From assembly GCF_058153355.1 (NCBI RefSeq), contig NZ_CM177019.1: a stretch of DNA of 64,000 bases. One strand, given 5' to 3'. This document shows, piece by piece, positions 1-38,130 of the stretch (the first letter of the stretch is position 1; each line of letters begins with the position of its first letter). The notes under the pieces are model-generated. The model was not told the origin of the DNA and did no database searches. It saw only the letters and a list, made by a program, of their open reading frames with translations. The position numbers and the translations under genes are program-made.

Positions 1-717
1 TTGAACATTCATCACGGTGAAATGGTGGCTCTGCTTGGGCCGTCGGGTTCCGGCAAATCCACCCTTTTACGTCATTTAAGCGGTTTGATTACCGGCGATA
101 AATCTGCCGGTAGCCATATCGAGCTGCTGGGCCGCACAGTCCAGCGCGAAGGCCGCCTGGCCCGCGATATCCGCAAAAGCCGCGCCAACACCGGCTACAT
201 CTTCCAACAATTCAACCTGGTGAATCGCCTGAGCGTACTGGAGAACGTGCTGATTGGCGCGCTCGGCAGCACGCCATTCTGGCGCACCTGTTTTAGCTGG
301 TTCACCCGCGAGCAGAAACAGCGCGCGTTACAGGCGCTGACCCGCGTTGGCATGGTGCACTTTGCCCATCAGCGCGTTTCCACCCTCTCCGGCGGGCAAC
401 AGCAGCGTGTGGCGATTGCCCGCGCGCTGATGCAGCAGGCGAAGGTGATTCTGGCCGATGAACCCATCGCCTCGCTGGACCCGGAATCGGCGCGCATCGT
501 GATGGACACCCTGCGCGACATTAACCAGAACGACGGCATTACCGTGGTCGTCACGCTGCATCAGGTGGATTACGCCCTGCGCTATTGCGAACGCATCGTC
601 GCCCTGCGTCAGGGGCACGTCTTTTACGACGGCAGCAGCCAACAGTTTGATAACGAACGTTTTGACCATCTCTACCGCAGCATTAATCGCATCGAAGAGA
701 ACGCGAAAGCTGCCTGA
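1..717 (+). CDS. phnC: Phosphonate ABC transporter ATP-binding subunit PhnC, 5'-truncated by window edge
   Basis: Frame-1 ORF open from position 1; Walker [13 protein letters not shown] signature LSGGQQQR, Walker B ILADEP; phnD follows 24 nt later. The leading M in the track is an internal TTG codon. Confidence 0.9.
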
Positions 718-741
718 CATCCCCATCATTGAGGAAAACGA

Positions 742-1758
742 ATGAACGCTAAGATAATTGCCTCGCTGGCCTTCACCAGCATGTTCAGCCTCAGCACCCT
801 GTTAAGTCCGGCGCACGCCGAAGAGCAGGAAAAGGCGCTGAATTTCGGCATTATTTCAACGGAATCACAGCAAAACCTGAAACCGCAATGGACGCCGTTC
901 TTACAGGATATGGAGAAGAAGCTGGGCGTAAAGGTCAACGCCTTCTTTGCCCCGGACTACGCGGGCATTATCCAGGGGATGCGCTTCAATAAAGTGGATA
1001 TCGCCTGGTACGGCAATCTATCGGCGATGGAAGCGGTGGATCGCGCCAACGGTCAGGTCTTCGCCCAGACGGTCGCGGCGGATGGATCGCCGGGTTACTG
1101 GAGCGTGTTGATCGTCAACAAAGACAGTCCGATCAACAACCTGAACGATCTGCTGGCGAAGCGTAAAGATCTCACCTTTGGCAATGGCGATCCTAACTCC
1201 ACCTCTGGCTTCCTCGTCCCCGGCTACTACGTCTTCGCCAAAAACAATATCTCCGCCAGCGACTTCAAGCGCACCGTCAACGCCGGGCATGAAACCAACG
1301 CGCTGGCCGTCGCCAACAAGCAGGTGGATGTGGCGACCAACAACACCGAGAACCTCGACAAGCTGAAAACCTCCGCACCGGAGAAGCTCAAAGAACTGAA
1401 GGTGATCTGGAAATCGCCGCTGATCCCAGGCGATCCGATCGTCTGGCGCAAAAATCTTTCCGAAACCACCAAAGACAAGATCTACGACTTCTTTATGAAC
1501 TACGGCAAAACGCCGGAAGAGAAAGCGGTGCTGGAGCGCCTGGGCTGGGCCCCGTTCCGCGCCTCCAGCGACCTGCAACTGGTGCCGATTCGCCAGCTCG
1601 CGCTGTTTAAAGAGATGCAGGGCGTGAAAGGCAATAAAGGGCTGAATGAGCAGGACAAGCTGGCAAAAACCAGCGCCATTCAGGCGCAACTGGATGACCT
1701 GGACCGCCTGAACAACGCGTTAAGCGCGATGAGTTCGGTGAGTAAAGCGGTGCAGTAA
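742..1758 (+). CDS. phnD: Periplasmic phosphonate-binding protein PhnD
   Basis: 338-aa ORF with N-terminal signal peptide (…LLSPAHA/EE), GAGGAAAA RBS upstream, operon position after phnC. Confidence 0.92.
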   Translation: MNAKIIASLAFTSMFSLSTLLSPAHAEEQEKALNFGIISTESQQNLKPQWTPFLQDMEKKLGVKVNAFFAPDYAGIIQGMRFNKVDIAWYGNLSAMEAVDRANGQVFAQTVAADGSPGYWSVLIVNKDSPINNLNDLLAKRKDLTFGNGDPNSTSGFLVPGYYVFAKNNISASDFKRTVNAGHETNALAVANKQVDVATNNTENLDKLKTSAPEKLKELKVIWKSPLIPGDPIVWRKNLSETTKDKIYDFFMNYGKTPEEKAVLERLGWAPFRASSDLQLVPIRQLALFKEMQGVKGNKGLNEQDKLAKTSAIQAQLDDLDRLNNALSAMSSVSKAVQ

Positions 1759-1773
1759 TGTGCTCGATCGGTC

Positions 1774-1860
1774 CCCTCTCCCTTGAGGGAGAGGGTTAGG
1801 GTGAGGGGGGAAATACGCACGCTGATGCCCTCACCCCGGCCCTCTCCCACAGGGAGAGGG
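1774..1860. repeat. Three nested GC-rich stem-loops in the phnD-phnE intergenic region
   Basis: CCCTCTCCC-TTGA-GGGAGAGGG (about 1774-1795), GGGTGAGGG…CCCTCACCC (about 1799-1807 with 1828-1836) and CCCTCTCCC-ACA-GGGAGAGGG (about 1840-1860). Confidence 0.75.
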
Positions 1861-1884
1861 AGAAAACATTAAACGGAGCCAAAC

Positions 1885-2664
1885 ATGCAAACCATCACCA
1901 TCGCCCCACCCAAGCGCAGCTGGTTCTCGCTTCTGAGCTGGGCCATTGTTCTCGCCGTGCTGGTCGTCTCGTGGCAGGGCGCGGAAATGGCCCCGCTCAC
2001 GCTGATTAAAGACGGCGGCAACATGGCGACGTTCGCCGCCGACTTCTTCCCGCCCGATTTCAGCCAGTGGCAGGATTACCTCACCGAAATGGCCGTCACG
2101 CTGCAAATCGCCGTCTGGGGCACCGCGCTGGCAGTCGTTCTCTCCATCCCCTTCGGCCTGATGAGCGCCGAAAACCTGGTGCCGTGGTGGGTGTACCAGC
2201 CCGTGCGCCGTCTGATGGACGCCTGCCGCGCCATTAACGAAATGGTCTTCGCCATGCTGTTCGTGGTCGCCGTCGGTCTCGGGCCGTTCGCTGGCGTGCT
2301 GGCGCTGTTTATTCACACCACCGGCGTGCTTTCCAAACTGCTTTCCGAAGCGGTGGAAGCGATTGAACCCGGCCCGGTGGAAGGTATTCGCGCCACTGGT
2401 GCCAACAAGCTCGAAGAGATCCTCTACGGCGTGCTGCCGCAGGTGATGCCGCTGCTGATCTCCTACTCCCTCTATCGCTTCGAATCCAACGTCCGTTCGG
2501 CCACCGTTGTTGGCATGGTCGGCGCTGGCGGGATCGGCGTCACGCTGTGGGAAGCGATTCGCGGTTTCCAGTTCCAGCAAACCTGCGCCCTGATGGTGCT
2601 GATTATCGTCACGGTCAGCCTGCTGGATTTCCTCTCTCAACGGTTGCGTAAGCACTTTATCTGA
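1885..2664 (+). CDS. phnE: Phosphonate ABC transporter permease PhnE (intact reading frame)
   Basis: 259-aa hydrophobic ORF with GGAG RBS, uninterrupted; lies between phnD and phnF. Confidence 0.85.
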
Positions 2665-2684
2665 TAAGCGAGGCATTGATATCT

Positions 2685-3410
2685 ATGCACTTGTCTACAC
2701 ATCCGACCAGCTACCCAACACGCTATCAGGAGATAGCCGCAAAACTTGAGCAGGAGCTTCGTCAACACTACCGCTGCGGCGACTATCTTCCCGCCGAGCA
2801 GCAACTGGCAGCGCGCTTTGAGGTGAATCGCCACACCCTGCGCCGTGCCATCGACCAACTGGTGGAAAAAGGCTGGGTACAGCGCCGTCAGGGCGTCGGC
2901 GTGCTGGTGCTGATGCGCCCGTTCGATTACCCGCTCAACGCTCAGGCGCGTTTTAGCCAGAACCTGCTGGATCAGGGTAGCCATCCCACCAGCGAAAAAC
3001 TGCTGTCCGTGCTGCGCCCGGCCTCCGGTCACGTCGCTGACGCGCTGGGGATAACCGAGGGCGAGAACGTTATCCACCTGCGCACCCTGCGCCGGGTCAA
3101 CGGCGTCGCGCTCTGTTTAATCGACCACTACTTTGCGGACCTCACCCTCTGGCCGACGCTGCAACGCTTCGACAGCGGCTCGCTGCACGATTTTCTGCGT
3201 GAGCAAACGGGGATTGCGCTGCGCCGCAGCCAGACGCGGATCAGCGCCCGCCGCGCCCAGGCCAAAGAGTGCCAGCGTCTTGAAATCCCGAATATGTCGC
3301 CGCTGCTGTGCGTGCGCACCCTTAACCACCGTGACGGTGAAAGCAGCCCGGCGGAGTACTCCGTCAGCCTGACGCGCGCCGACATGATTGAATTCACTAT
3401 GGAGCACTGA
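2685..3410 (+). CDS. phnF: GntR-family transcriptional regulator PhnF
   Basis: Track ORF 2676-3410 trimmed to ATG giving 241 aa; N-terminal HTH region; operon context. Confidence 0.85.
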   Translation: MHLSTHPTSYPTRYQEIAAKLEQELRQHYRCGDYLPAEQQLAARFEVNRHTLRRAIDQLVEKGWVQRRQGVGVLVLMRPFDYPLNAQARFSQNLLDQGSHPTSEKLLSVLRPASGHVADALGITEGENVIHLRTLRRVNGVALCLIDHYFADLTLWPTLQRFDSGSLHDFLREQTGIALRRSQTRISARRAQAKECQRLEIPNMSPLLCVRTLNHRDGESSPAEYSVSLTRADMIEFTMEH

Positions 3411-3863
3411 ATGCACGCAGATACCGCGACCCGCCAGCACTGGATGTCCGTGCTGGCGCACAGCCAACCGGCTGAACTGGCTAACCGCCTTAAAGCGCTA
3501 AACATCACCGCCGACTATGACATTATCCGCGCCGCCGAAACCGGCCTGGTACAGATTCAGGCGCGGATGGGTGGCACCGGCGAACGCTTTTTTGCCGGCG
3601 ACGCCACGCTCACCCGCGCCGCCATACGCCTGACTGACGGCACGCTCGGCTACAGCTGGGTGCTGGGGCGCGACAAACAGCACGCCGAACGCTGCGCGCT
3701 GATTGACGCGCTGATGCAGCAATCTCGCCACTTTCAAAACTTATCAGAAACCCTTATTGCCCCGCTGGACGCTGACCGTATGGCACGCATTGCCGCACGC
3801 CAGGCCGAAGTGAACGCCAGTCGGGTCGACTTCTTTACGATGGTTCGCGGAGACAACGCATGA
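3411..3863 (+). CDS. phnG: C-P lyase core complex subunit PhnG
   Basis: 150-aa ORF; start abuts phnF stop; recognised PhnG sequence. Confidence 0.9.
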
Positions 3864-4444
3864 CCCTGGAAACCGCTTTTATGCTTCCCGTGCAGGATGC
3901 CCAGCACAGTTTTCGTCGCCTGTTAAAGGCCATGAGCGAGCCGGGCGTGATTGTCGCCCTACATCAACTCAAACGCGGCTGGCAGCCGCTGAATATTGCC
4001 TCTACCAGCGTATTGCTGACGCTGGCTGATAACGACACGCCGGTGTGGCTTTCCGCGCCATTAAGTAACGATATCGTCAGCCAGAGCCTGCGTTTTCATA
4101 CCAACGCCCCGCTGGTCAATCAGCCGGAACAGGCGACCTTCGCAGTGACGGATGAGGCGATTGCCAGCGAGCAGCTCAACGCCCTTTCCACCGGCACCGC
4201 CGTTGCGCCGGAAGCCGGTGCGACGTTGATTTTACAGGTCACCAGCCTGAGCGGCGGACGCATGCTGCGCCTCACCGGCGCGGGTATTGCCGAAGAACGG
4301 ATGATCGCCCCGCAACTGCCGGAGTGCATTCTGCACGAACTCACCGAGCGCCCGCACCCGTTCCCGCTCGGCATCGACCTGATCCTGACCTGCGGCGAGC
4401 GCCTGCTGGCTATTCCGCGAACCACTCATGTGGAGGTGTGCTGA
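3860..4444 (+). CDS. phnH: C-P lyase core complex subunit PhnH
   Basis: 194-aa ORF overlapping phnG stop by 4 nt (translational coupling). Confidence 0.9.
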
Positions 4445-5508
4445 TGTACGTTGCCGTGAAAGGGGGCGAGAAGGCGATCGACGCCGCCCACGCCCTGCAA
4501 GAGAGCCGACGCCGGGGCGATACCGATTTGCCTGAACTGAGCGTCGCCCAGATTGAACAGCAGCTTAATCTCGCGGTGGATCGCGTGATGACCGAAGGCG
4601 GCATTGCCGACCGCGAACTGGCCGCACTGGCGCTGAAACAGGCCAGTGGCGATAACGTTGAAGCAATTTTCCTGCTGCGCGCCTACCGCACGACGCTGGC
4701 AAAACTGGCGGTAAGCGAGCCGCTCGACACCACCGGGATGCGTCTCGAACGCCGTATCTCCGCCGTTTATAAAGACATTCCTGGCGGCCAGCTGCTTGGC
4801 CCGACCTACGACTACACCCATCGCCTGCTGGATTTCACCCTGCTGGCGAATGGCGAAGCGCCGACGCTGACCACCGCCGACAGCGAGCAAGCCCCATCGC
4901 CGCACGTTTTCAGCCTGCTGGCGCGTCAGGGGCTGGCGAAGTTTGAAGAGGATAGCGGCGCACAGCCGGATGACATCACCCGTACACCGCCGGTTTACCC
5001 TTGCTCTCGCGCCTCCCGCCTGCAACAGCTCATGCGCGGCGACGAAGGCTACTTGCTGGCGCTGGCCTACTCCACCCAGCGCGGATATGGTCGCAATCAC
5101 CCCTTCGCAGGTGAAATCCGCAGCGGCTATATCGACGTGTCGATTGTGCCAGAAGAGCTGGGATTTTCAGTAAACGTCGGCGAACTGCTGATGACCGAGT
5201 GTGAAATGGTCAACGGTTTTATCGACCCGCCGGATGAGCCGCCGCACTTCACGCGCGGCTACGGGCTGGTGTTCGGCATGAGCGAGCGCAAAGCGATGGC
5301 AATGGCGCTGGTTGACCGTGCGTTGCAGGCTCCGGAGTACGGCGAGCACGCGACAGGCCCGGCGCAGGATGAAGAGTTCGTGCTGGCGCATGCCGACAAC
5401 GTCGAAGCCGCAGGCTTTGTCTCGCACCTCAAACTCCCGCACTACGTCGATTTCCAGGCCGAGCTGGAGCTACTCAAACGTCTGCAACAGGAGCAGAACC
5501 ATGGCTAA
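4444..5508 (+). CDS. phnI: C-P lyase core complex subunit PhnI
   Basis: Track ORF 4324-5508 trimmed to the ATG overlapping the phnH stop ([13 protein letters not shown]…), giving 354 aa. Confidence 0.88.
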   Translation: MYVAVKGGEKAIDAAHALQESRRRGDTDLPELSVAQIEQQLNLAVDRVMTEGGIADRELAALALKQASGDNVEAIFLLRAYRTTLAKLAVSEPLDTTGMRLERRISAVYKDIPGGQLLGPTYDYTHRLLDFTLLANGEAPTLTTADSEQAPSPHVFSLLARQGLAKFEEDSGAQPDDITRTPPVYPCSRASRLQQLMRGDEGYLLALAYSTQRGYGRNHPFAGEIRSGYIDVSIVPEELGFSVNVGELLMTECEMVNGFIDPPDEPPHFTRGYGLVFGMSERKAMAMALVDRALQAPEYGEHATGPAQDEEFVLAHADNVEAAGFVSHLKLPHYVDFQAELELLKRLQQEQNHG

Positions 5509-6346
5509 TCTGAGCGGCTACAACTTTGCCTACCTCGACGAGCAGACCAAACGCATGATCCGCCGCGCCATCTTAAAAGCGGTGGCGATCCCCGGCTATC
5601 AGGTGCCGTTTGGCGGGCGCGAGATGCCGATGCCATACGGCTGGGGAACCGGCGGCATACAGCTTACCGCCAGCGTGATTGGCGAAAGCGACGTGTTGAA
5701 GGTGATTGACCAGGGCGCGGATGACACCACCAACGCCGTATCAATTCGCAACTTTTTCAAGCGCGTGACCGGGGTAAACACCACTGAACGTACGGATGAT
5801 GCGACGCTTATCCAGACGCGCCACCGCATCCCCGAAACGCCGCTGACCGAAGATCAGATCATTATTTTCCAGGTGCCCATCCCCGAACCGCTGCGCTTTA
5901 TCGAGCCGCGCGAAACGGAGACCCGCACTATGCACGCGCTGGAGGAGTACGGCGTGATGCAGGTGAAACTGTATGAAGATATCGCCCGCTTCGGTCATAT
6001 CGCCACCACCTACGCCTATCCGGTGAAGGTGAACGGACGCTACGTAATGGACCCATCGCCGATCCCGAAATTTGATAACCCGAAAATGGACATGATGCCC
6101 GCCCTGCAACTGTTCGGCGCGGGGCGCGAAAAGCGTATTTATGCGGTGCCGCCGTTTACCCGCGTGGAAAGCCTCGATTTCGACGATCATCCGTTCACCG
6201 TTCAGCAGTGGGATGAACCCTGCGCGATTTGCGGATCAACCCACAGCTATCTTGATGAAGTGGTGCTGGATGACGCCGGAAACCGCATGTTTGTCTGCTC
6301 CGATACCGATTATTGCCGCCAACAGAGCGAGGCGAAAAGCCAATGA
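5501..6346 (+). CDS. phnJ: C-P lyase catalytic subunit PhnJ (radical SAM-dependent)
   Basis: Track ORF trimmed to MANLSGYNFAYLDEQ… (281 aa); C-terminal Cys cluster CAICGSTHSYLDE…CSDTDYC; overlaps phnI by 8 nt. Confidence 0.9.
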   Translation: MANLSGYNFAYLDEQTKRMIRRAILKAVAIPGYQVPFGGREMPMPYGWGTGGIQLTASVIGESDVLKVIDQGADDTTNAVSIRNFFKRVTGVNTTERTDDATLIQTRHRIPETPLTEDQIIIFQVPIPEPLRFIEPRETETRTMHALEEYGVMQVKLYEDIARFGHIATTYAYPVKVNGRYVMDPSPIPKFDNPKMDMMPALQLFGAGREKRIYAVPPFTRVESLDFDDHPFTVQQWDEPCAICGSTHSYLDEVVLDDAGNRMFVCSDTDYCRQQSEAKSQ

Positions 6347-7101
6347 ATCAACCGTTACTTTCGGTCAATAACCTGACCCACCTCTACGCGCCGGGCAAAG
6401 GCTTTAGCGATGTCTCTTTTGATTTATGGCCGGGGGAAGTGCTGGGCATCGTCGGGGAATCCGGCTCCGGGAAGACCACGCTGCTGAAATCAATCTCCGC
6501 GCGCCTGACGCCGCAGCAGGGGGAGATTCGCTATGAAAACCGCTCCCTCTATGGCATGAGCGAAGCCGACCGCCGCCGTTTGCTGCGCACCGAATGGGGC
6601 GTGGTGCATCAGCATCCGCTCGACGGCCTGCGCCGTCAGGTGTCAGCAGGCGGCAATATCGGCGAACGGCTGATGGCGACCGGGGCGCGTCATTACGGCG
6701 ACATTCGCGCCACCGCGCAGAAGTGGCTGGAAGAGGTGGAGATTCCCGCCAACCGTATCGACGATCTGCCGACCACTTTTTCCGGCGGCATGCAGCAGCG
6801 TTTGCAGATTGCCCGCAACCTGGTGACGCATCCGAAGCTGGTGTTTATGGACGAGCCAACCGGCGGGCTGGATGTGTCAGTGCAGGCACGCCTGCTCGAC
6901 CTGCTGCGCGGTCTGGTGGTGGAGCTGAACCTGGCAGTGGTGATTGTCACCCATGATCTGGGTGTCGCACGCCTGTTGGCAGACCGTTTGCTGGTGATGA
7001 AACAGGGGCAAGTGGTGGAGAGTGGCTTAACCGACCGCGTGCTCGACGACCCGCATCACCCGTATACCCAGTTGCTGGTGTCATCGGTTTTGCAGAATTG
7101 A
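6343..7101 (+). CDS. phnK: ABC-type ATPase PhnK (C-P lyase accessory)
   Basis: Trimmed to MNQPLLSVNNL… (252 aa); Walker A GESGSGKTT, signature FSGGMQQR, Walker B VFMDEP. Confidence 0.9.
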   Translation: MNQPLLSVNNLTHLYAPGKGFSDVSFDLWPGEVLGIVGESGSGKTTLLKSISARLTPQQGEIRYENRSLYGMSEADRRRLLRTEWGVVHQHPLDGLRRQVSAGGNIGERLMATGARHYGDIRATAQKWLEEVEIPANRIDDLPTTFSGGMQQRLQIARNLVTHPKLVFMDEPTGGLDVSVQARLLDLLRGLVVELNLAVVIVTHDLGVARLLADRLLVMKQGQVVESGLTDRVLDDPHHPYTQLLVSSVLQN

Positions 7102-7104
7102 GCC

Positions 7105-7250
7105 GGTGCCGGATGCGGCGTAAACGCCTTATCCGGCTTTTCAGGCCGCAACGCCTGATGGCGCTTCGCTTATCAGGCCTACAAAACCATCGTAATACGT
7201 TGATATTGATTCATTTGTAGGCCGGATAAGGCGCAGCCGCCATCCGGCAA
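7105..7250. repeat. REP palindromic units between phnK and phnL
   Basis: GCCGGATGCGGCGTAAACGCCTTATCCGGC, GCCTGATGGCGCTTCGCTTATCAGGCCTAC and TAGGCCGGATAAGGCGCAGCCGCCATCCGGC in the 167-bp phnK-phnL gap. Confidence 0.85.
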
Positions 7251-7268
7251 AAACACGAAGAGGCCAAA

Positions 7269-7949
7269 ATGATCCGCGTCGAAAACGTCAGTAAAACCTT
7301 CATCCTGCACCAGCAAAACGGCGTGCGCCTGCCCGTCTTACAACGCGCCTCGCTCACCGTCAACGCGGGCGAATGCGTGGTGCTCCACGGTCACTCCGGC
7401 AGCGGCAAATCAACTCTGCTACGCTCGCTGTACGCCAACTATCTGCCCGACGAAGGGCAAATTCAGATCAAACATGGTGACGAGTGGGTAGACCTGGTCA
7501 CCGCGCCAGCGCGCAAAGTGGTGGAAATCCGCAAAACCACCGTCGGCTGGGTGAGCCAGTTTCTGCGGGTCATCCCGCGTATTTCAGCGCTGGAAGTGGT
7601 AATGCAGCCGCTGCTCGATACCGGCGTTTCGCGTGATGCCTGCGCCGCTAAAGCCGCGCGTCTGCTCACCCGCCTGAACGTGCCGGAACGTCTGTGGCAC
7701 CTGGCGCCATCGACCTTCTCCGGCGGCGAACAGCAGCGCGTCAACATCGCGCGCGGCTTTATCGTCGATTACCCCATTCTGCTGCTCGACGAACCTACTG
7801 CCTCGCTGGACGCCAAAAACAGCGCCGCGGTGGTGGAACTGATCCGCGAAGCTAAAACCCGCGGCGCAGCCATCGTCGGCATCTTCCACGACGAAGCCGT
7901 ACGCAATGACGTCGCCGACCGCCTCCACCCAATGGGAGCCTCTGCATGA
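7269..7949 (+). CDS. phnL: ABC-type ATPase PhnL (C-P lyase accessory)
   Basis: 226-aa ORF; Walker [10 protein letters not shown], signature FSGGEQQR, Walker B LLLDEP; preceded by a REP cluster. Confidence 0.9.
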
Positions 7950-9082
7950 TTATCAATAACGTCAAACTGGTGCTGGAAAACGAAGTGGTACACGGTTCGC
8001 TGGAGGTGCAGGACGGCGAAATTCGCGCCTTTGCCGAAAGCCAGAGCCGCCTGCCAGAGGCGATGGACGGCGAAGGCGGCTGGCTGCTGCCGGGGCTGAT
8101 TGAGCTGCATACCGACAACCTCGATAAATTCTTCACTCCGCGCCCAAAAGTGGACTGGCCTGCCCACTCGGCGATGAGCAGCCACGATGCGCTGATGGTG
8201 GCGAGCGGCATCACCACCGTGCTGGACGCCGTGGCGATTGGCGACGTGCGCGACGGCGGCGATCGGCTGGAGAATCTGGAAAAGATGATCAACGCCATCG
8301 AAGAGACGCAGAAACGCGGCGTCAACCGCGCCGAGCACCGCCTGCACCTGCGCTGCGAACTGCCGCATCACACTACGCTGCCGCTGTTTGAAAAACTGGT
8401 GCAGCGCGAGCCGGTCACGCTGGTGTCGCTAATGGACCACTCACCGGGCCAGCGCCAGTTCGCCAATCGCGAGAAATATCGCGAATATTATCAGGGCAAA
8501 TACTCGCTCACCGATGCGCAGATGCAGCAGTATGAAGGGGAACAACTGGCGCTTGCCGCACGCTGGTCGCAGCCGAATCGCGAAACCATCGCCGCAATGT
8601 GCCGCGCGCGACAAATTGCCCTCGCCAGCCACGATGACGCCACGCACGCGCACGTTGCCGAATCCCACCAGCTTGGCAGCGTAATCGCCGAATTTCCCAC
8701 CACGTTCGAAGCGGCGGAAGCTTCGCGCAAGCATGGCATGAATGTATTGATGGGCGCGCCGAATATTGTGCGCGGCGGTTCGCACTCCGGCAACGTGGCG
8801 GCCAGTGAACTGGCACAGCTTGGTCTGCTGGATATCCTCTCTTCCGACTACTACCCCGCCAGCCTGCTCGATGCGGCATTTCGCGTCGCCGATGACGAGA
8901 GCAACCGCTTTACGCTGCCGCAGGCGGTGAAGCTGGTGACTAAAAATCCGGCCCAGGCGCTTAATCTTCAGGATCGCGGGGTGATTGGCGAGGGCAAACG
9001 CGCCGACCTGGTGCTGGCGCATCGCAAGGGCAACCACATTCATATCGATCACGTCTGGCGTCAGGGTAAAAGGGTGTTCTGA
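7946..9082 (+). CDS. phnM: Amidohydrolase-family phosphonate pathway protein PhnM
   Basis: 378-aa ORF overlapping phnL stop by 4 nt; recognised PhnM sequence. Confidence 0.9.
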
Positions 9083-9639
9083 TGACGGGAAAACTGATTT
9101 GGTTAATGGGGGCCTCTGGCTCCGGAAAAGACAGTCTGTTGACGGAACTCCGCCAGCGGGAACAAACTCAGCTACTGGTAGCGCATCGCTACATCACGCG
9201 CGCCGCCAGCGCCGGAAGTGAAAACCATATCGCCCTGAGCGAGCAGGAGTTTTTTACCCGCGCGGGGCAGAACCTTCTGGCCTTAAGCTGGCACGCCAAC
9301 GGCCTGTATTATGGCATCGGCGTCGAGATTGACCTCTGGCTGCACGCTGGATTTGACGTGGTGGTCAACGGCTCACGCGCCCATCTACCGCAGGCGCGGG
9401 CGCGCTATCAATCGGCGCTGCTGCCCATCTGTTTACAGGTTTCGCCAGAGATCCTGCGCCAGCGCCTGGAAAACCGTGGCCGTGAAAACGCCAGTGAAAT
9501 TAACGCCCGCCTGGCGCGCGCCGCCCGCTATACTCCTCAGGATTGTCTTACGCTCAATAATGACGGCAGCCTGCGCCAGTCGGTCGACAAGCTGCTGACG
9601 CTGATTCATCAGAAGGAGAAACACCATGCCTGCTTGTGA
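9082..9639 (+). CDS. phnN: Ribose 1,5-bisphosphate phosphokinase PhnN
   Basis: 185-aa ORF with P-loop GASGSGKDS; start overlaps phnM stop. Confidence 0.9.
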
Positions 9640-10060
9640 GCTTCGCCCGGCCACGCAGTACGACACCGACGCAGTTTACGCGCTGATTTGTGAGCTAAAA
9701 CAGGCGGAGTTTGACCACCACGCGTTTCGCGTGGGGTTTAACGCCAATCTGCGCGACCCGAACATGCGCTACCATCTGGCGCTGCTGGATGGCGAAGTTG
9801 TCGGCATGATCGGCCTGCATTTGCAGTTTCATCTGCATCATGTCAACTGGATCGGCGAAATTCAGGAACTGGTGGTGATGCCGCAGGCGCGCGGTCTGAA
9901 CGTCGGCAGTAAATTACTGGCATGGGCCGAAGAAGAAGCCCGCCAGGCCGGGGCCGAAATGACCGAGCTTTCCACCAACGTCAAGCGCCACGACGCGCAC
10001 CGTTTCTATCTGCGCGAAGGCTACGAGCAGAGCCACTTCCGCTTCACCAAGGCGCTGTAA
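9626..10060 (+). CDS. phnO: GNAT-family aminoalkylphosphonate N-acetyltransferase PhnO
   Basis: 144-aa ORF overlapping phnN by 14 nt; recognised PhnO sequence. Confidence 0.88.
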
Positions 10061-10061
10061 C

Positions 10062-10820
10062 ATGAGCCTGACCCTCACACTTACTGGCACTGGCGGCGCA
10101 CAGGGCGTTCCCGCATGGGGCTGTGAGTGTGCGGCCTGCGCCAGAGCGCAGCGCTCACCGCAGTATCGCCGCCAGCCATGCAGCGGCGTCGTGAAGTTTA
10201 ACGAGGCGATCACCCTGATCGACGCCGGGCTGCACGATCTCGCCGATCGCTGGTCGCCCGGATCGTTCCAGCAGTTTTTGCTGACGCACTACCATATGGA
10301 TCACGTGCAGGGGCTGTTTCCGCTGCGCTGGGGCGTGGGCGATTCTATCCCGGTCTACGGCCCGCCGGATGAACAGGGCTGCGACGATCTGTTTAGACAT
10401 CCGGGCCTGCTTGATTTCAGCCACACGGTGGAGCCATTTGTGATGTTTGATTTGCAGGGATTACAGGTCACGCCGCTGCCGCTCAACCATTCGAAACTCA
10501 CTTTCGGCTATCTACTGGAAACGGCACATAGCCGGGTGGCGTGGCTGTCTGACACCGCAGGCCTGCCGGAAAAAACGGTGAAATTTTTACGCAATAATCA
10601 GCCGCAGGTGATGGTGATTGATTGCAGCCACCCACCGCGCGCGAATTCGCCACGCAATCACTGTGATTTAAACACCGTGCTGGCGCTGAATGAAGTTATC
10701 CGCTCGCCGCGCGTGGTTCTGACACATATCAGCCATCAGCTTGATGTGTGGCTGATGGAGAACGTACTGCCGTCAGGGTTTGAGGCGGGGTTTGATGGGA
10801 TGGAGATTGGGGTGGAGTAA
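10062..10820 (+). CDS. phnP: Metallo-beta-lactamase-fold phosphodiesterase PhnP
   Basis: 252-aa ORF with HxHxDH metal motif ([10 protein letters not shown]); last gene of the operon. Confidence 0.9.
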
Positions 10821-10854
10821 TGGGTGAGGGGCGATGCCTGCTCTAAACTCAACA

Positions 10855-11184
10855 TCACCGCCCATACTCATCTTCCATTCTCCGCTCTTCATCTTCTAGC
10901 TGCCGACGCTCCTGATCCAGCTGGCGCTGGCGATCGTCCAGCTGCCTGCGGCGATCTTCAAACTGGCGGCGGCGATCGTCATATTGTCTGCGCCGATCGT
11001 CGTTCACTTCACGCTGCCAGCCGTCGTCGCGCGAATCTTCATAGTCTCGCCCACGGTCAGGGTTATAAGCATCGTTAATCGCCTGCTGAATATTGCCAAT
11101 GGTGTCGTCGATAATATCGGCCTGGGCCGGAACGGTGGACAGCGTGAGCAGGGTGAATAAAAGAAATAGCGGAAAACGTTTCAT
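10855..11184 (-). CDS. yjdP: Small secreted low-complexity protein YjdP
   Basis: 109-aa ORF with signal peptide (…TVPAQA/D) and Asp/Arg/Gln-rich repeats (DDRRRQYDDRRRQFEDRRRQLDDRQRQL); position next to phnP as in K-12. Confidence 0.75.
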   Translation of the reverse strand: MKRFPLFLLFTLLTLSTVPAQADIIDDTIGNIQQAINDAYNPDRGRDYEDSRDDGWQREVNDDRRRQYDDRRRQFEDRRRQLDDRQRQLDQERRQLEDEERRMEDEYGR

Positions 11185-11252
11185 TAGCCAACCTCAAAAA
11201 GAAACTCTATCCACATTAGTCATTACTCATCCATGCAAGTAGTGGATGAATC

Positions 11253-11570
11253 TCAATTTTTCCGCTGCTCTATTGCCGTAATCGCCTCCACGCGTTGTTG
11301 ATGACGACCGCCTTCGTACTGCGCGCCCAGCCACGCATCCACAATCATTTTTGCCAGTTCGAGGCCAACCACTCGTGAACCAAAAGCCAGTGCAACTTCA
11401 CTGGCGTAATGCGGATAATCAGTGCGCTCTGACGACCTGGTTTCTTTATCAATCCCCTCACTCATTGACCATGAATAAAAGGCTGGCACAGCAACGCAGA
11501 ATCCTGCGGTGCCAGCGACATGACCGCCCATTGCTCCGGTACGTTTTTTAATAAGAAATACCGGTTGCAT
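11253..11570 (-). pseudogene. rpiB: Truncated ribose-5-phosphate isomerase B (rpiB) remnant
   Basis: 105-aa ORF whose C-terminal ~65 aa (…SSERTDYPHYASEVALAFGSRVVGLELAKMIVDAWLGAQYEGGRHQQRVEAITAIEQ) resembles the RpiB/LacAB C-terminus; the central Gly-rich catalytic segment is missing and the N-terminal 39 aa look unrelated or frameshifted. Full RpiB is about 149 aa. Confidence 0.55.
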
Positions 11571-11822
11571 TGATTAATTGTGCTCAGTATTTGCCGAAGT
11601 ACAATATATATAATAAATATATAAAACACCTCATATTATTTACAGAGATAATAAATTCGCGTACTTTTCCCTCTTCAGCACAAATGCCTAATAAAATGGC
11701 TCGTTCCGCTCACACTTCCACTTATTAAAATCGCAATTTCCCAATTATGATAACGCCAGCTTTAAATGACGTATTTTGCATGGATTACATATTTACGACA
11801 CAAATGATAAATGGAGATTTAT

Positions 11823-35020: not shown

Positions 35021-36313
35021 ATGCGCTATAATGGTTTAAATAATATGTTTTTCCCTCTTTGCCTGATTAACGATAACCACCCTGTCACAAGTCCATCACA
35101 TACAAAGAAAACAAAATCAGATAATTATAGCAAACATCATAAAGACACGTTAATTGACAATAAAGCCCTCTCTCTTTTCAAAATGGATGATCATGAAAAA
35201 GTGATAGGCTTGATTCAGAAAATGAAAAGAACTTATGATACTTTACCATCAGGAAAAATCACTAAAGAAACGGACAGGAAAATTCATAAATATTTTATAG
35301 ATATAGCTTTATACGCAAGTAATAAATATGACGATAGAATTACGAGAAGAGTTTACCTTAATAAAGATAAGGAAGTATCAATTAAGGTAGTGTATTTTAT
35401 AAATAATGTCACTGTCCATAATAATACTATCGAAATCCCACAGACAGTAAATGGTGGTTACGATTTTTCATACCTTAGCCTGAAAGGTATCAGGATTAAA
35501 GATGAAGATTTATCCAATTCGGATTTTGCAGGTTGCAGACTACAAAATGCTATTTTCCAGGGCTGTAATATGTATCAAACGAATTTTAATTTTGCCATAA
35601 TGGAAAAAATAATTTTTGATAATTGTATTCTCGATGACTCAAATTTCGCTCAGATAAAAATGACTGACGGAACTCTAAATGCATGCTCCGCTATGCATGT
35701 TGAATTCTTCAATGCAACAATGATTAGAGCTAAAATTAAAAATACCTTCCTTGACTATTCAAATTTTTATATGGCGTACATGGCTGAGGTGAATCTTTAT
35801 AAAGTAATAGCGCCATATGTTAATTTATTTAGAGCCGACCTTAGTTTCTCTAAACTCGATTTAATTAACTTTGAACATGCTAATCTTTCTCGCGTCAACC
35901 TGAACAAAGCAACCCTCCAGAATATAAACTTAATTAATAGCAAACTCTTTTTTACGCGGCTGACAAATACGTTCCTCGAAATGGTTATATGTACCGATTC
36001 TAATATGGCTAATGCTAATTTTAATAATGCCAATTTAAGCAATTGCCATTTCAACTGTTCTATTTTAACAAAAGCCTGGATGTTTAATACCCGTTTCTAT
36101 CGGGTTAATTTCGATGAGGCTATCGTCCAGGGAATGGGCATATCCATTCTCCGTGGGGAGGATAATATTCCCATTAATAGTGATATCCTGATAACACTAC
36201 AGCAACTCTTTGAAGAGGATTGTGCCACTCATACTGGCATGTCACAAACTGAGCATAATATTCAGGAAGTGTCTATGAATACCACTGAAGATACTATGCA
36301 ATACGCAGATTGA
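35021..36313 (+). CDS. yjcF: Pentapeptide-repeat protein YjcF
   Basis: 430-aa ORF in strongly AT-rich DNA; C-terminal two-thirds made of tandem pentapeptide-like repeats (…NFNFA…, …ANLSRVNLNKATLQNINLINSKL…, ANANFNNANLSNCHFN…). Confidence 0.8.
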   Translation: MRYNGLNNMFFPLCLINDNHPVTSPSHTKKTKSDNYSKHHKDTLIDNKALSLFKMDDHEKVIGLIQKMKRTYDTLPSGKITKETDRKIHKYFIDIALYASNKYDDRITRRVYLNKDKEVSIKVVYFINNVTVHNNTIEIPQTVNGGYDFSYLSLKGIRIKDEDLSNSDFAGCRLQNAIFQGCNMYQTNFNFAIMEKIIFDNCILDDSNFAQIKMTDGTLNACSAMHVEFFNATMIRAKIKNTFLDYSNFYMAYMAEVNLYKVIAPYVNLFRADLSFSKLDLINFEHANLSRVNLNKATLQNINLINSKLFFTRLTNTFLEMVICTDSNMANANFNNANLSNCHFNCSILTKAWMFNTRFYRVNFDEAIVQGMGISILRGEDNIPINSDILITLQQLFEEDCATHTGMSQTEHNIQEVSMNTTEDTMQYAD

Positions 36314-36402
36314 GATTAAGCCGAAGAATAGCCAATGAATTGACTTTAAAAGAGAGATACTCACGGACTTCTGACTTATTTATTTTAGAATCATGAATGT
36401 TA

Positions 36403-36460
36403 GCCCGAGGTAATCTGAAAAAGGTGCAAAAGATTGCACCTTTTTCAGATTACCTCGGGC
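36403..36460. terminator. 58-nt perfect palindrome between convergent yjcF and yjcE; likely bidirectional terminator
   Basis: GCCCGAGGTAATCTGAAAAAGGTGCAA-AAGA-TTGCACCTTTTTCAGATTACCTCGGGC: 27-bp arms with no mismatch, 20 nt from the yjcE stop. Confidence 0.6.
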
Positions 36461-36480
36461 CTGGTTACGTCGCTTTCGGC

Positions 36481-38130
36481 TTACTGATTTTCCTCAATCA
36501 ACAACGCTTCAAGCAAATCGAGATCGTGCAATAATTTTTGCAGCGTTTCGTTACTGATCTCCCGCGTGGCGCGCAGGTGGTAAAGTTCAGCTCGTTCAGA
36601 ACGCAATGCTGCCAGACGGAAGCGACGCTCCAGATTCTCTTCCTGCACGGAACTTTCAACGTCGTTACGTCCATCGGCGCGACGACGCAGGTTACCAATG
36701 ACGCGAGAACTGACCTCCGTGAGCAGCTGGTTATCGATATTCTCTTCGGTATCCGCCGCCAGACGCTCCTCCATTTTCTGGATTGCCACAATCGCCACTT
36801 CTGCCGTTGCCGCTCGCGCAATACGCTCCTCTTTCAACTGCTGCGAATGGTCTGCGACTTCAATGTGTTGCAGCAGAATGGGCAACATCACCACGCCGAC
36901 AAACAGCGAGAAGAGAATGACGCCAGCCGCCAGGAACACCAACTCATAGCGCGCCGGGAAGACGTTGCCATCCGGCAAGAGCAGCGGGATAGAGAGCACA
37001 CCGGCTAGTGTGATCGCCCCACGCACCCCGGCAAAAGACGCAATCAGGATTTCTCGTGTGGTCCACGAACCAAACTCCATCGGCTTCTTCTTCAGAAAAC
37101 GGTTGCTGAACTTTTTCATCGTCCACAGCCAGCCAAAACGGACCAGCATCAGCGCCGCATAAATCAGAATGATATCGGTAAACAGCATCCAGATTTCGAC
37201 GTTAGGGTCGATTTCTGCCGCCATCAGCGACGTCTCCAGAATACCCGGCAACTGCAGACCTAACAGCAGGAATACCATGCCGTTGAAGACAAATTCCAGC
37301 ATCGCCCAGGTGCTGTTTGCGCGCAGGCGCATCGCCAGCGGCGCACGGCGCATTACACCGGAGCGGGTGATGGTCATCCCAGCGGCAACCGCAGCAAGAA
37401 TACCGGAAACGCCAATATGTTCGGCAATCAGATAAGAAGCGAATGGCAGCAGGAACAGCAGTACAATCTGCGTCGCGGGTTCATCACCGCCCCAGCGGCT
37501 GAGGAATCGCAGCGAACGACCATACAGCCAGCTCACCACAAAACCGGCGAGAATACCGCCAATGGCCACTTTCATAAATTCCACCGTTGCACCGCCGACG
37601 GTGAAGATCATCGTCCCCATCGCCACTGCCACAGCAAACTTTAATGACACCAGGCCGGAGGCGTCATTCATCAACGCTTCGCCCTGCAAAATACCCATGA
37701 TTTTTTTCGGGATGCGCCCTTCGCCAACAATACCGGAAAGCGCCACAGCATCGGTCGGAGAAAGCACCGCCGCCAGCGCAAAGGCGGGAATCAGCGGAAT
37801 GCCCGGCACCACCCAGTAAATAAGGAAGCCAATGCCAACCACGGTGACCACCACCAGCGCCAGCGCGAGGCCGAAAATCTCCCGACCATGTTCGAGAAAT
37901 TCACGGGTCGGCGTTTTCCAGCCATCTGCGAACAGCAACGGCGGGATAAACAAGACTAAAAAGAGTTCAGGATCAAACTCCACATGCAAACCAAACGTCG
38001 GCCACGCCAGTAGCGCACCGATGGCGATTTGCATAAGCGGAAGCGGGATCTGAAAGGGCATGACACGAGTGACCACCCCGGACAGCGAGACCACGAGGGT
38101 CATTATCAGTATGGTGAAGAAGATTTCCAT
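36481..38130 (-). CDS. yjcE: CPA1-family Na+(K+)/H+ exchanger YjcE
   Basis: 549-aa ORF with hydrophobic N-terminal transporter domain and charged coiled-coil-like C-terminal tail. Confidence 0.88.
   Translation of the reverse strand: MEIFFTILIMTLVVSLSGVVTRVMPFQIPLPLMQIAIGALLAWPTFGLHVEFDPELFLVLFIPPLLFADGWKTPTREFLEHGREIFGLALALVVVTVVGIGFLIYWVVPGIPLIPAFALAAVLSPTDAVALSGIVGEGRIPKKIMGILQGEALMNDASGLVSLKFAVAVAMGTMIFTVGGATVEFMKVAIGGILAGFVVSWLYGRSLRFLSRWGGDEPATQIVLLFLLPFASYLIAEHIGVSGILAAVAAGMTITRSGVMRRAPLAMRLRANSTWAMLEFVFNGMVFLLLGLQLPGILETSLMAAEIDPNVEIWMLFTDIILIYAALMLVRFGWLWTMKKFSNRFLKKKPMEFGSWTTREILIASFAGVRGAITLAGVLSIPLLLPDGNVFPARYELVFLAAGVILFSLFVGVVMLPILLQHIEVADHSQQLKEERIARAATAEVAIVAIQKMEERLAADTEENIDNQLLTEVSSRVIGNLRRRADGRNDVESSVQEENLERRFRLAALRSERAELYHLRATREISNETLQKLLHDLDLLEALLIEENQ

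Follow-up and report, generated by a model that had tools for sequence, protein, structure and literature searches.

The 64-kb stretch of DNA analyzed here (hereafter the window) carries a perfect 58-nt palindrome between the convergent genes yjcF and yjcE. We consider it probable that the perfection of this hairpin arose through quasipalindrome template switching, the window's allele having been derived by conversion. Comparison of the locus across Escherichia coli revealed a series of alleles that recur on different haplotypes, that have been converted in both directions, and in which the changes are restricted to mismatches. This allelic pattern is the signature of quasipalindrome template-switch mutation, and it is from the pattern that we infer the molecular mechanism. 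Our verdict is that a known mutational process has acted on an ordinary 3′-end hairpin, rather than that the locus represents a new kind of element. Both the locus and its bidirectional, recurrent allelic series appear to be undescribed in the literature.

A perfect palindrome between convergent genes

The palindrome and the two open reading frames that flank it are placed in the window as follows:

35021 to 36313, plus strand: yjcF (espX5), pentapeptide-repeat protein gene
36403 to 36429, no strand assigned: left palindrome arm, GCCCGAGGTAATCTGAAAAAGGTGCAA; it is here that the common E. coli allele has a different sequence
36430 to 36433, no strand assigned: loop AAGA, identical in all alleles examined, with no inversion of the spacer
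36434 to 36460, no strand assigned: right arm of the palindrome, TTGCACCTTTTTCAGATTACCTCGGGC; same as the right arm of K-12
36481 to 38130, minus strand: yjcE, Na+/H+ antiporter gene, convergent with yjcF

The names of both genes come from the RefSeq annotation of E. coli genomes that match the window. Transcription of yjcF proceeds into the hairpin, and the gaps from stop codon to hairpin are 89 nt for yjcF and 20 nt for yjcE, which bears out the convergent setting described in a first-pass annotation made from the sequence alone. Its coordinates and its claim of perfect arms also held on exact re-reading: both the letters themselves and a repeat finder give two arms of 27 nt each, complementary at 27/27 positions, separated by a 4-nt loop, for a total of 58 nt. 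The palindrome is real and statistically extreme, far beyond chance; the expectation for a perfect inverted repeat of 27 bp with a loop of 0-10 nt is ~4e-11 per 64 kb and ~3e-9 per 5 Mb. Folding yields -52.8/-53.0 kcal/mol for RNA of the two strands (z = -9.9/-10.7) and -34.5 kcal/mol per strand for DNA (z = -13.4). Within the window, this is the longest inverted repeat, and the sole perfect one of at least 14 nt. The second longest, at positions 1781-1854, is imperfect (27-nt arms, 81% complementary, with a 20-nt spacer) and is rich in GGG/CCC runs.

A 45-aa open reading frame (36397-36534, plus strand) starts 6 nt ahead of the hairpin, crosses it and runs antisense to the 3′ end of yjcE. We rejected it as a gene, since it is a mechanical reading frame with no Shine-Dalgarno sequence upstream. 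Membership in a known RNA family was likewise discarded: a search of Rfam gave only sub-threshold, generic miRNA-hairpin matches.

Allelic states of the hairpin in E. coli

Our survey set comprised 5,426 complete E. coli genomes, ~4,110 of which carry the yjcF-yjcE hairpin. Searching them for further copies, a check that the first-pass annotation had proposed, found the hairpin to be single-copy, at a median of one place per genome. K-12 has an imperfect form, paired at 23/27 stem positions, which matches exactly in 3,367 genomes; its left arm reads GCCCGAGcTAAcCTGttAAAGGTGCAA, and its right arm and loop are as in the window. A second imperfect type has five mismatches (22/27 paired). The window's perfect form was found in 17 genomes, and an intermediate with AA in the left arm (25/27 paired) in 23 genomes among the matches listed. 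On the other arm, a reciprocal perfect form is present in 8 genomes and a right-arm dinucleotide intermediate in 4. There are thus six allelic states at one locus, and the corrected alleles together account for ~1.3% of the locus-bearing genomes.

The differences between the window and K-12 are confined to a short tract of the left arm:

36410 to 36419, no strand assigned: 10-nt tract of window-versus-K-12 differences (36410, G versus C; 36414, T versus C; 36418-36419, AA versus TT)

These four differences in 58 nt fall exactly on the four unpaired stem positions of K-12, all of them in the left arm, and at each of the four the window has the base that pairs with the right arm. Over 44 kb, the window and K-12 are ~96.4% identical, and near the locus they are ~5% diverged. 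Given a divergence of ~3.6% throughout, four differences in 58 nt are not in themselves an excess. Those members of the window-type clade that we examined have either the perfect hairpin or one that is a single substitution short of perfect. The first-pass annotation had taken the unusual length and perfection of the stem as a hint of some function beyond termination. The structure is real, but the comparison of alleles across strains shows its length and perfection to be a polymorphic mutational state that is generated recurrently.

Near-isogenic haplotypes and conversion of either arm

Three pairs of haplotypes (L73/CFSAN061761, AH25/ECCRA-119 and FORC_041/CH423) differ in 3,096 nt solely at a TT/AA dinucleotide, at left-arm positions 16-17. 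The AA form is the rarer one in each pair, with 3, 9 and 3 genomes, respectively, versus 25, at least 49 and 4 genomes of the otherwise identical TT haplotypes. Backgrounds 1 and 2 differ from each other at 74 sites, the nearest markers lying 55 nt upstream and 146 nt downstream of the dinucleotide. On these backgrounds, 74 differences apart, we count at least two apparent origins of the left-arm AA, with the caveat that very short recombination tracts could have contributed.

The series is mirrored on the other arm. A degenerate-pattern scan of metagenomes retrieved a contig (L065) with a second perfect palindrome, whose left arm is that of K-12 and whose rewritten right arm reads TTGCACCTTTAACAGGTTAGCTCGGGC. 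We considered whether this contig was a fold-back assembly artifact or a chimera, and rejected this since both flanks are authentic and 8 complete genomes have the allele too. Compared with its nearest neighbor, PS10-3, which has the 5-mismatch allele, EC1515 differs at all five mismatch positions, within 10 nt, and at one other site outside them in the first 2,184 nt; under random substitution, the probability of this pattern is ~2e-15. The metagenome contig differs from AH25, over ~3 kb, at the four right-arm mismatch positions and at one distant SNP, and from EC1515 at 71-81 positions. Being so near to AH25 and so far from EC1515, it indicates that the reciprocal perfect allele arose at least twice, and that its two origins lie in different alleles, one with five mismatches and one with four. 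At most one of two distinct perfect palindromes can be the ancestor, so the locus demonstrates that an imperfect form has been converted to a perfect one.

Four features of the pattern lead us to template switching: multi-base changes at mismatches only, complementarity to the other arm, contiguous tracts and recurrence. In the left-arm AA, the right-arm AA and both perfect alleles, mutation is restricted to positions that were formerly mismatched. In every sampled allele, the corrected tract is contiguous from the inner stem, and tracts of both kinds are seen, comprising the innermost dinucleotide only or all mismatches, with either arm as the recipient. The starting allele is able to fold back, the K-12 type being paired at 23/27 positions with a perfect inner stem of 10 bp. 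During DNA synthesis, the nascent strand would fold back on this always-perfect inner stem and copy the first arm, and the second arm would in this way be rewritten outward from the loop. The rewritten tract could be short, reaching the innermost dinucleotide, or long, covering all mismatches. The window's allele would then be the product of a left-arm conversion along the full tract (36410-36419) that became fixed in its diverged lineage, and by analogy with the conversions observed elsewhere in E. coli we hold such a derivation to be likely.

Two related possibilities were dropped. An inversion between the arms is at odds with the AAGA loop and the opposite arm, which are unchanged in all alleles. 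A leading-strand bias was first hinted at by the GC skew and was abandoned after right-arm conversions were found; as these are about as frequent as left-arm ones, we make no claim of strand bias. The skew sets the replication orientation at the locus only; both arms act as recipients, and a bias is not evident. Laboratory quasipalindrome reporters do show strand bias (PMC7202029), and template switching has been put forward as a process by which hairpins arise and are maintained in evolution (PMC8794818; PMC5941160).

Termination and transcript 3′ ends

Inside the long stem, a shorter module resembles an intrinsic terminator on each strand:

36418 to 36448, plus strand: terminator-like inner module in the yjcF direction (A5, 7-bp stem GGUGCAA/UUGCACC, loop AAGA, tail UUUUUCAG; -9.5 kcal/mol)
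36415 to 36445, minus strand: terminator-like inner module in the yjcE direction (A5, 7-bp stem, loop UCUU, tail UUUUUCAG; -10.4 kcal/mol)

The window's inner module provides the stem and the U-rich tract of an intrinsic terminator on both strands, and the hairpin is located just beyond both stop codons, as a terminator would be. In K-12 the tail in the yjcE direction is weaker (UUUAACAG). A scan with a consensus terminator model found nothing at the palindrome; the scan misses the inner module because it takes the maximal stem, and the U-run then lies inside the full stem.

Published data are available for K-12, in which the hairpin (4281650-4281707) is the imperfect allele. DirectRNA-seq with and without bicyclomycin identified Rho-termination regions at 4281854(+) and 4281402(-) (PMC7815308), 150-250 nt past the hairpin on either side, and supplement 1 of that study lists no curated Term-seq 3′ end at the hairpin (42816xx-42817xx). 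The K-12 hairpin is thus upstream of both Rho regions, as a protective stem-loop would be, but a 3′ end at the base of the stem, which would be expected of one, is not seen (PMC7815308). With Rho regions beyond the hairpin and no 3′ end at it, the imperfect allele is leaky at best, with Rho as the backup. The proposal of the first-pass annotation that the palindrome terminates both convergent transcripts therefore survives in part: it is plausible for the inner 7-bp module, whereas in the 27-bp stem as a whole the U-tract is buried, and none of the curated K-12 3′ ends falls at the hairpin. The K-12 Rho regions at 4281402(-) and 4281854(+) correspond to window positions ~36700 and ~36250, antisense within yjcE and yjcF, which indicates that the convergent transcripts of K-12 overlap across the hairpin. 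Such overlapping transcripts could form sense-antisense duplexes.

The length of the U-tracts depends on the allele: U5/U5 in the window, U5/U3 in K-12 and U3/U3 in the reciprocal perfect form, which has UUUAAC tails on both strands. From the location and the inner module, we infer that this single-copy element is a 3′-end hairpin common to yjcF and yjcE. In such a hairpin, the inner stem with its A5/U5 flanks would act as a weak bidirectional intrinsic terminator and as a barrier to 3′ exonucleases, and Rho would terminate the read-through further downstream. The 15-bp outer extension of the stem and its perfection are probably near-neutral by-products; the rarity of the corrected alleles and the persistence of the U3/U3 allele in 8 genomes point to a perfection that is near-neutral rather than selected.

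A more speculative proposal is that the locus works as a bidirectional template-switch toggle, in which arm conversions would shift the terminator U-tracts among U5/U5, U5/U3 and U3/U3. We think it doubtful that this is so. If true, it would mean a heritable retuning of Rho dependence and of antisense read-through into yjcF (espX5) or yjcE, in other words a mutational switch between intrinsic and Rho-dependent termination in wild populations.

Flanking genes and the surrounding region

The low GC content of yjcF/espX5 (29-36%, as compared with 52-57% for its neighbors) suggests that the gene was acquired horizontally. The YjcF protein of the window type is 89% identical to the common type and falls in a separate cluster, one member of which is labelled 'Escherichia sp.' by NCBI. 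In many strains the gene has been replaced or broken by IS1 or IS3 (L003, L005, L020; hits H181-H184), and in some it has a frameshift or an internal stop (L011, L114). About 1,300 genomes have neither yjcF nor the hairpin, and there a LysR regulator and CidA/LrgB-family genes adjoin yjcE, with another, GC-rich hairpin, GGTTGGCGGGCTCGCCCGCCAACC, right after the yjcE stop. When positions 36403-36480 of the window are compared with one such strain, U12A (L004:1440-1530), homology stops at the yjcE stop codon.

A 14-nt segment upstream of the hairpin (CTCACGGACTTCTG, window positions 36360-36373) is shared by the window lineage and three haplotypes that otherwise resemble K-12 (L022-L024), and is missing from most E. 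coli. We looked for a copy that could have templated it and found none locally, the sole match being an 8-nt reverse complement 350 nt off, which does not account for the segment as a templated insertion. Probably the segment is ancestral and the main lineage has lost it by deletion. Two further length differences were seen nearby: a window-type relative (L026:1448-1603) has an 11-nt deletion right after the yjcF stop, and the metagenome contig with the reciprocal perfect palindrome has a 63-nt gap within yjcE, which is either real or an assembly artifact. At the start of the window, positions 1-11598 did not align to the K-12 region used for comparison, which takes in the side of the als operon, and the first 8 kb have a GC content of ~60%. 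On the evidence of this alignment, positions 1-11598 are a lineage-specific replacement or insertion relative to K-12.

Alternative explanations

The history of the window's allele could also be read in the opposite direction, with a perfect palindrome as the ancestor, the K-12 type as its decayed descendant, three or four left-arm point changes away, and the window as the keeper of the original. The ancestral palindrome would have formed in a single event that predates the divergence of the window lineage, or would have arrived with the low-GC yjcF segment. We regard this history as rather unlikely, if well worth weighing: decay of a perfect ancestor along the main lineage would fit the numbers about equally well, a local divergence of ~5% makes four differences in 58 nt unremarkable, the window-type clade is all perfect or one step away, and single-base decay of the perfect form is found in both arms (L007, L028/L029). 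Nor does any outgroup contradict it. A scan for the 20-nt core in one genome per species gave only a chance match, in a Kuenenia MAG, and a search with the YjcF protein found homologues solely in E. coli clusters; a metagenome scan for the window-type flank returned nothing. However, the decay would require a tandem AA>TT double transversion together with two other changes, the whole set crowded into 10 nt of a single arm with the rest of the 58 nt unaltered, and the original perfect repeat of 27 bp would itself still need a templated origin. The imperfect arm is widespread, being found on backgrounds both with the 14-nt segment (L022-L024) and without it, though this does not root the tree. 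Moreover, the passage from imperfect to perfect took place in one step at least twice in ordinary E. coli, and these events make a conversion on the long window branch at least as likely.

Recurrence, for its part, might reflect short-tract homologous recombination that spread one or two original variant hairpins, which we find improbable as a general account. Backgrounds 2 and 3, and likewise background 1 and LR-06, are identical for ~1.2 kb around the hairpin, and a tract of normal length could have carried the AA between them; some spreading of alleles between close backgrounds may well have happened in this way. Between diverged backgrounds, however, the markers 55 nt upstream and 146 nt downstream leave room for a tract of 201 nt at most, the reciprocal perfect allele began from different alleles at its two origins (with five and four mismatches), and recombination cannot create the alleles that it spreads. 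We assign a very low probability to selection for a stronger structure, be it a bidirectional terminator, an RNase III substrate or a stable 3′ end, acting through stepwise compensatory substitutions. The left-arm change of TT to AA does turn the yjcE-direction tail from UUUAAC into UUUUUC, and the window's perfect allele carries U5 at either side of a -49/-50 kcal/mol stem, versus -33/-39 kcal/mol in K-12; the predicted perfect stem of 27 bp is also long enough for RNase III, exceeding the ~20 bp of uninterrupted dsRNA expected of a substrate. Against this stands the rarity of the corrected alleles, at ~1.3% of locus-bearing genomes. After reciprocal conversion the U5 of the yjcF side is gone and both tails are weak, and such conversions nevertheless recur and persist; and multi-base changes with no other substitutions in 2-3 kb are impossible for stepwise selection. 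Least credible of all is a dedicated element acting at the DNA level, such as a protein-binding operator, a relic of a mobile or REP-like element, or a hotspot of cruciform formation or recombination. In its favor, the hairpin is highly stable as DNA (-34.5 kcal/mol per strand) and adjoins a variable region, many strains having an IS-disrupted yjcF or other sequence in its place. It is, however, single-copy in E. coli; we found no other arm copies in the 64-kb window at up to 3 mismatches, no such palindrome in phages, no Rfam family above threshold and no repeat annotation at the hairpin in K-12. The class of REP/BIME, dispersed repeats and MITEs was rejected on the same ground, the hairpin having one place per genome (median) rather than many copies. 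Members of a diverse clade have stably inherited the perfect form, no signs of instability were seen at the palindrome, and a length of 58 bp falls far short of what is known to make palindromes SbcCD-sensitive. The protein-binding site suggested in the first-pass annotation found no support, as the sole reported binding site nearby, an SrsR gSELEX site, falls inside yjcE and off the hairpin.

Significance and comparison with known systems

Quasipalindrome template switching, the explanation that we favor, gives the locus an interest beyond its own history. Quasipalindrome correction is known from laboratory reporters and from statistical comparative genomics, and clean natural cases, with near-isogenic haplotypes from before and after the event, are uncommon. 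The locus could serve as a natural calibration point for the rates and tract lengths of template switching. It also calls for caution in genome scans, where exceptional length and perfection of a hairpin can be by-products of mutation and where clustered 'compensatory' changes need not mean selection on structure. Because the conversions also alter the U-tracts, they provide a ready-made allelic series on the trade-off between intrinsic and Rho-dependent termination.

Like REP/BIME and other dispersed extragenic palindromes, the hairpin is an intergenic palindrome between convergent genes; unlike them, it is single-copy, has no REP annotation in K-12 and bears no family resemblance. Bidirectional intrinsic terminators share with it a short stem, a 4-nt loop and flanking A- and U-tracts, on both strands and past two convergent stop codons. 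Here, however, the stem runs 15 bp past the A/U tracts, the strength of the U-tract varies by allele, and in K-12 termination by Rho takes place downstream with no 3′ end at the hairpin (PMC7815308). The presence of a stable stem-loop upstream of a Rho region also recalls the protective 3′ stem-loops of Rho-dependent transcripts (PMC6061677). Unlike those stem-loops, the yjcF-yjcE hairpin has no steady-state 3′ end mapped to it (PMC7815308), and a protective role here is putative. Dar and Sorek (2018) noted that terminators could switch between Rho-dependent and intrinsic modes through a changed uridine content after the stem (PMC6061677), and this content is what the yjcF-yjcE alleles vary.

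Other parallels are mutational. In the quasipalindrome hotspots described by the model of Ripley (1982) and by the Lovett laboratory's work on the natural hotspot in thyA and the QP5/QP6 reporters in lacZ (PMC7202029), multi-base perfection is likewise reached in one event, one arm is rewritten, and the same site is hit recurrently. The evidence there is from selected laboratory reporters, whereas the present case is population-genomic, drawn from wild isolates and metagenomes, with both arms as recipients and with short and full-length tracts coexisting as standing alleles. Studies of hairpin template switching in evolution (PMC8794818; PMC5941160) describe, as we do, multi-base 'compensatory' changes that restore pairing at once and a cycle of decay and correction. 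Their evidence is statistical, gathered across rRNA genes or many intergenic repeats, and the inverted repeats of K-12 that were analyzed have arms of <20 bp (PMC5941160), shorter than the 27-bp arm described here. At the yjcF-yjcE locus, by contrast, the events are seen at a single site, in near-isogenic haplotypes, and with two alternative perfect end states.
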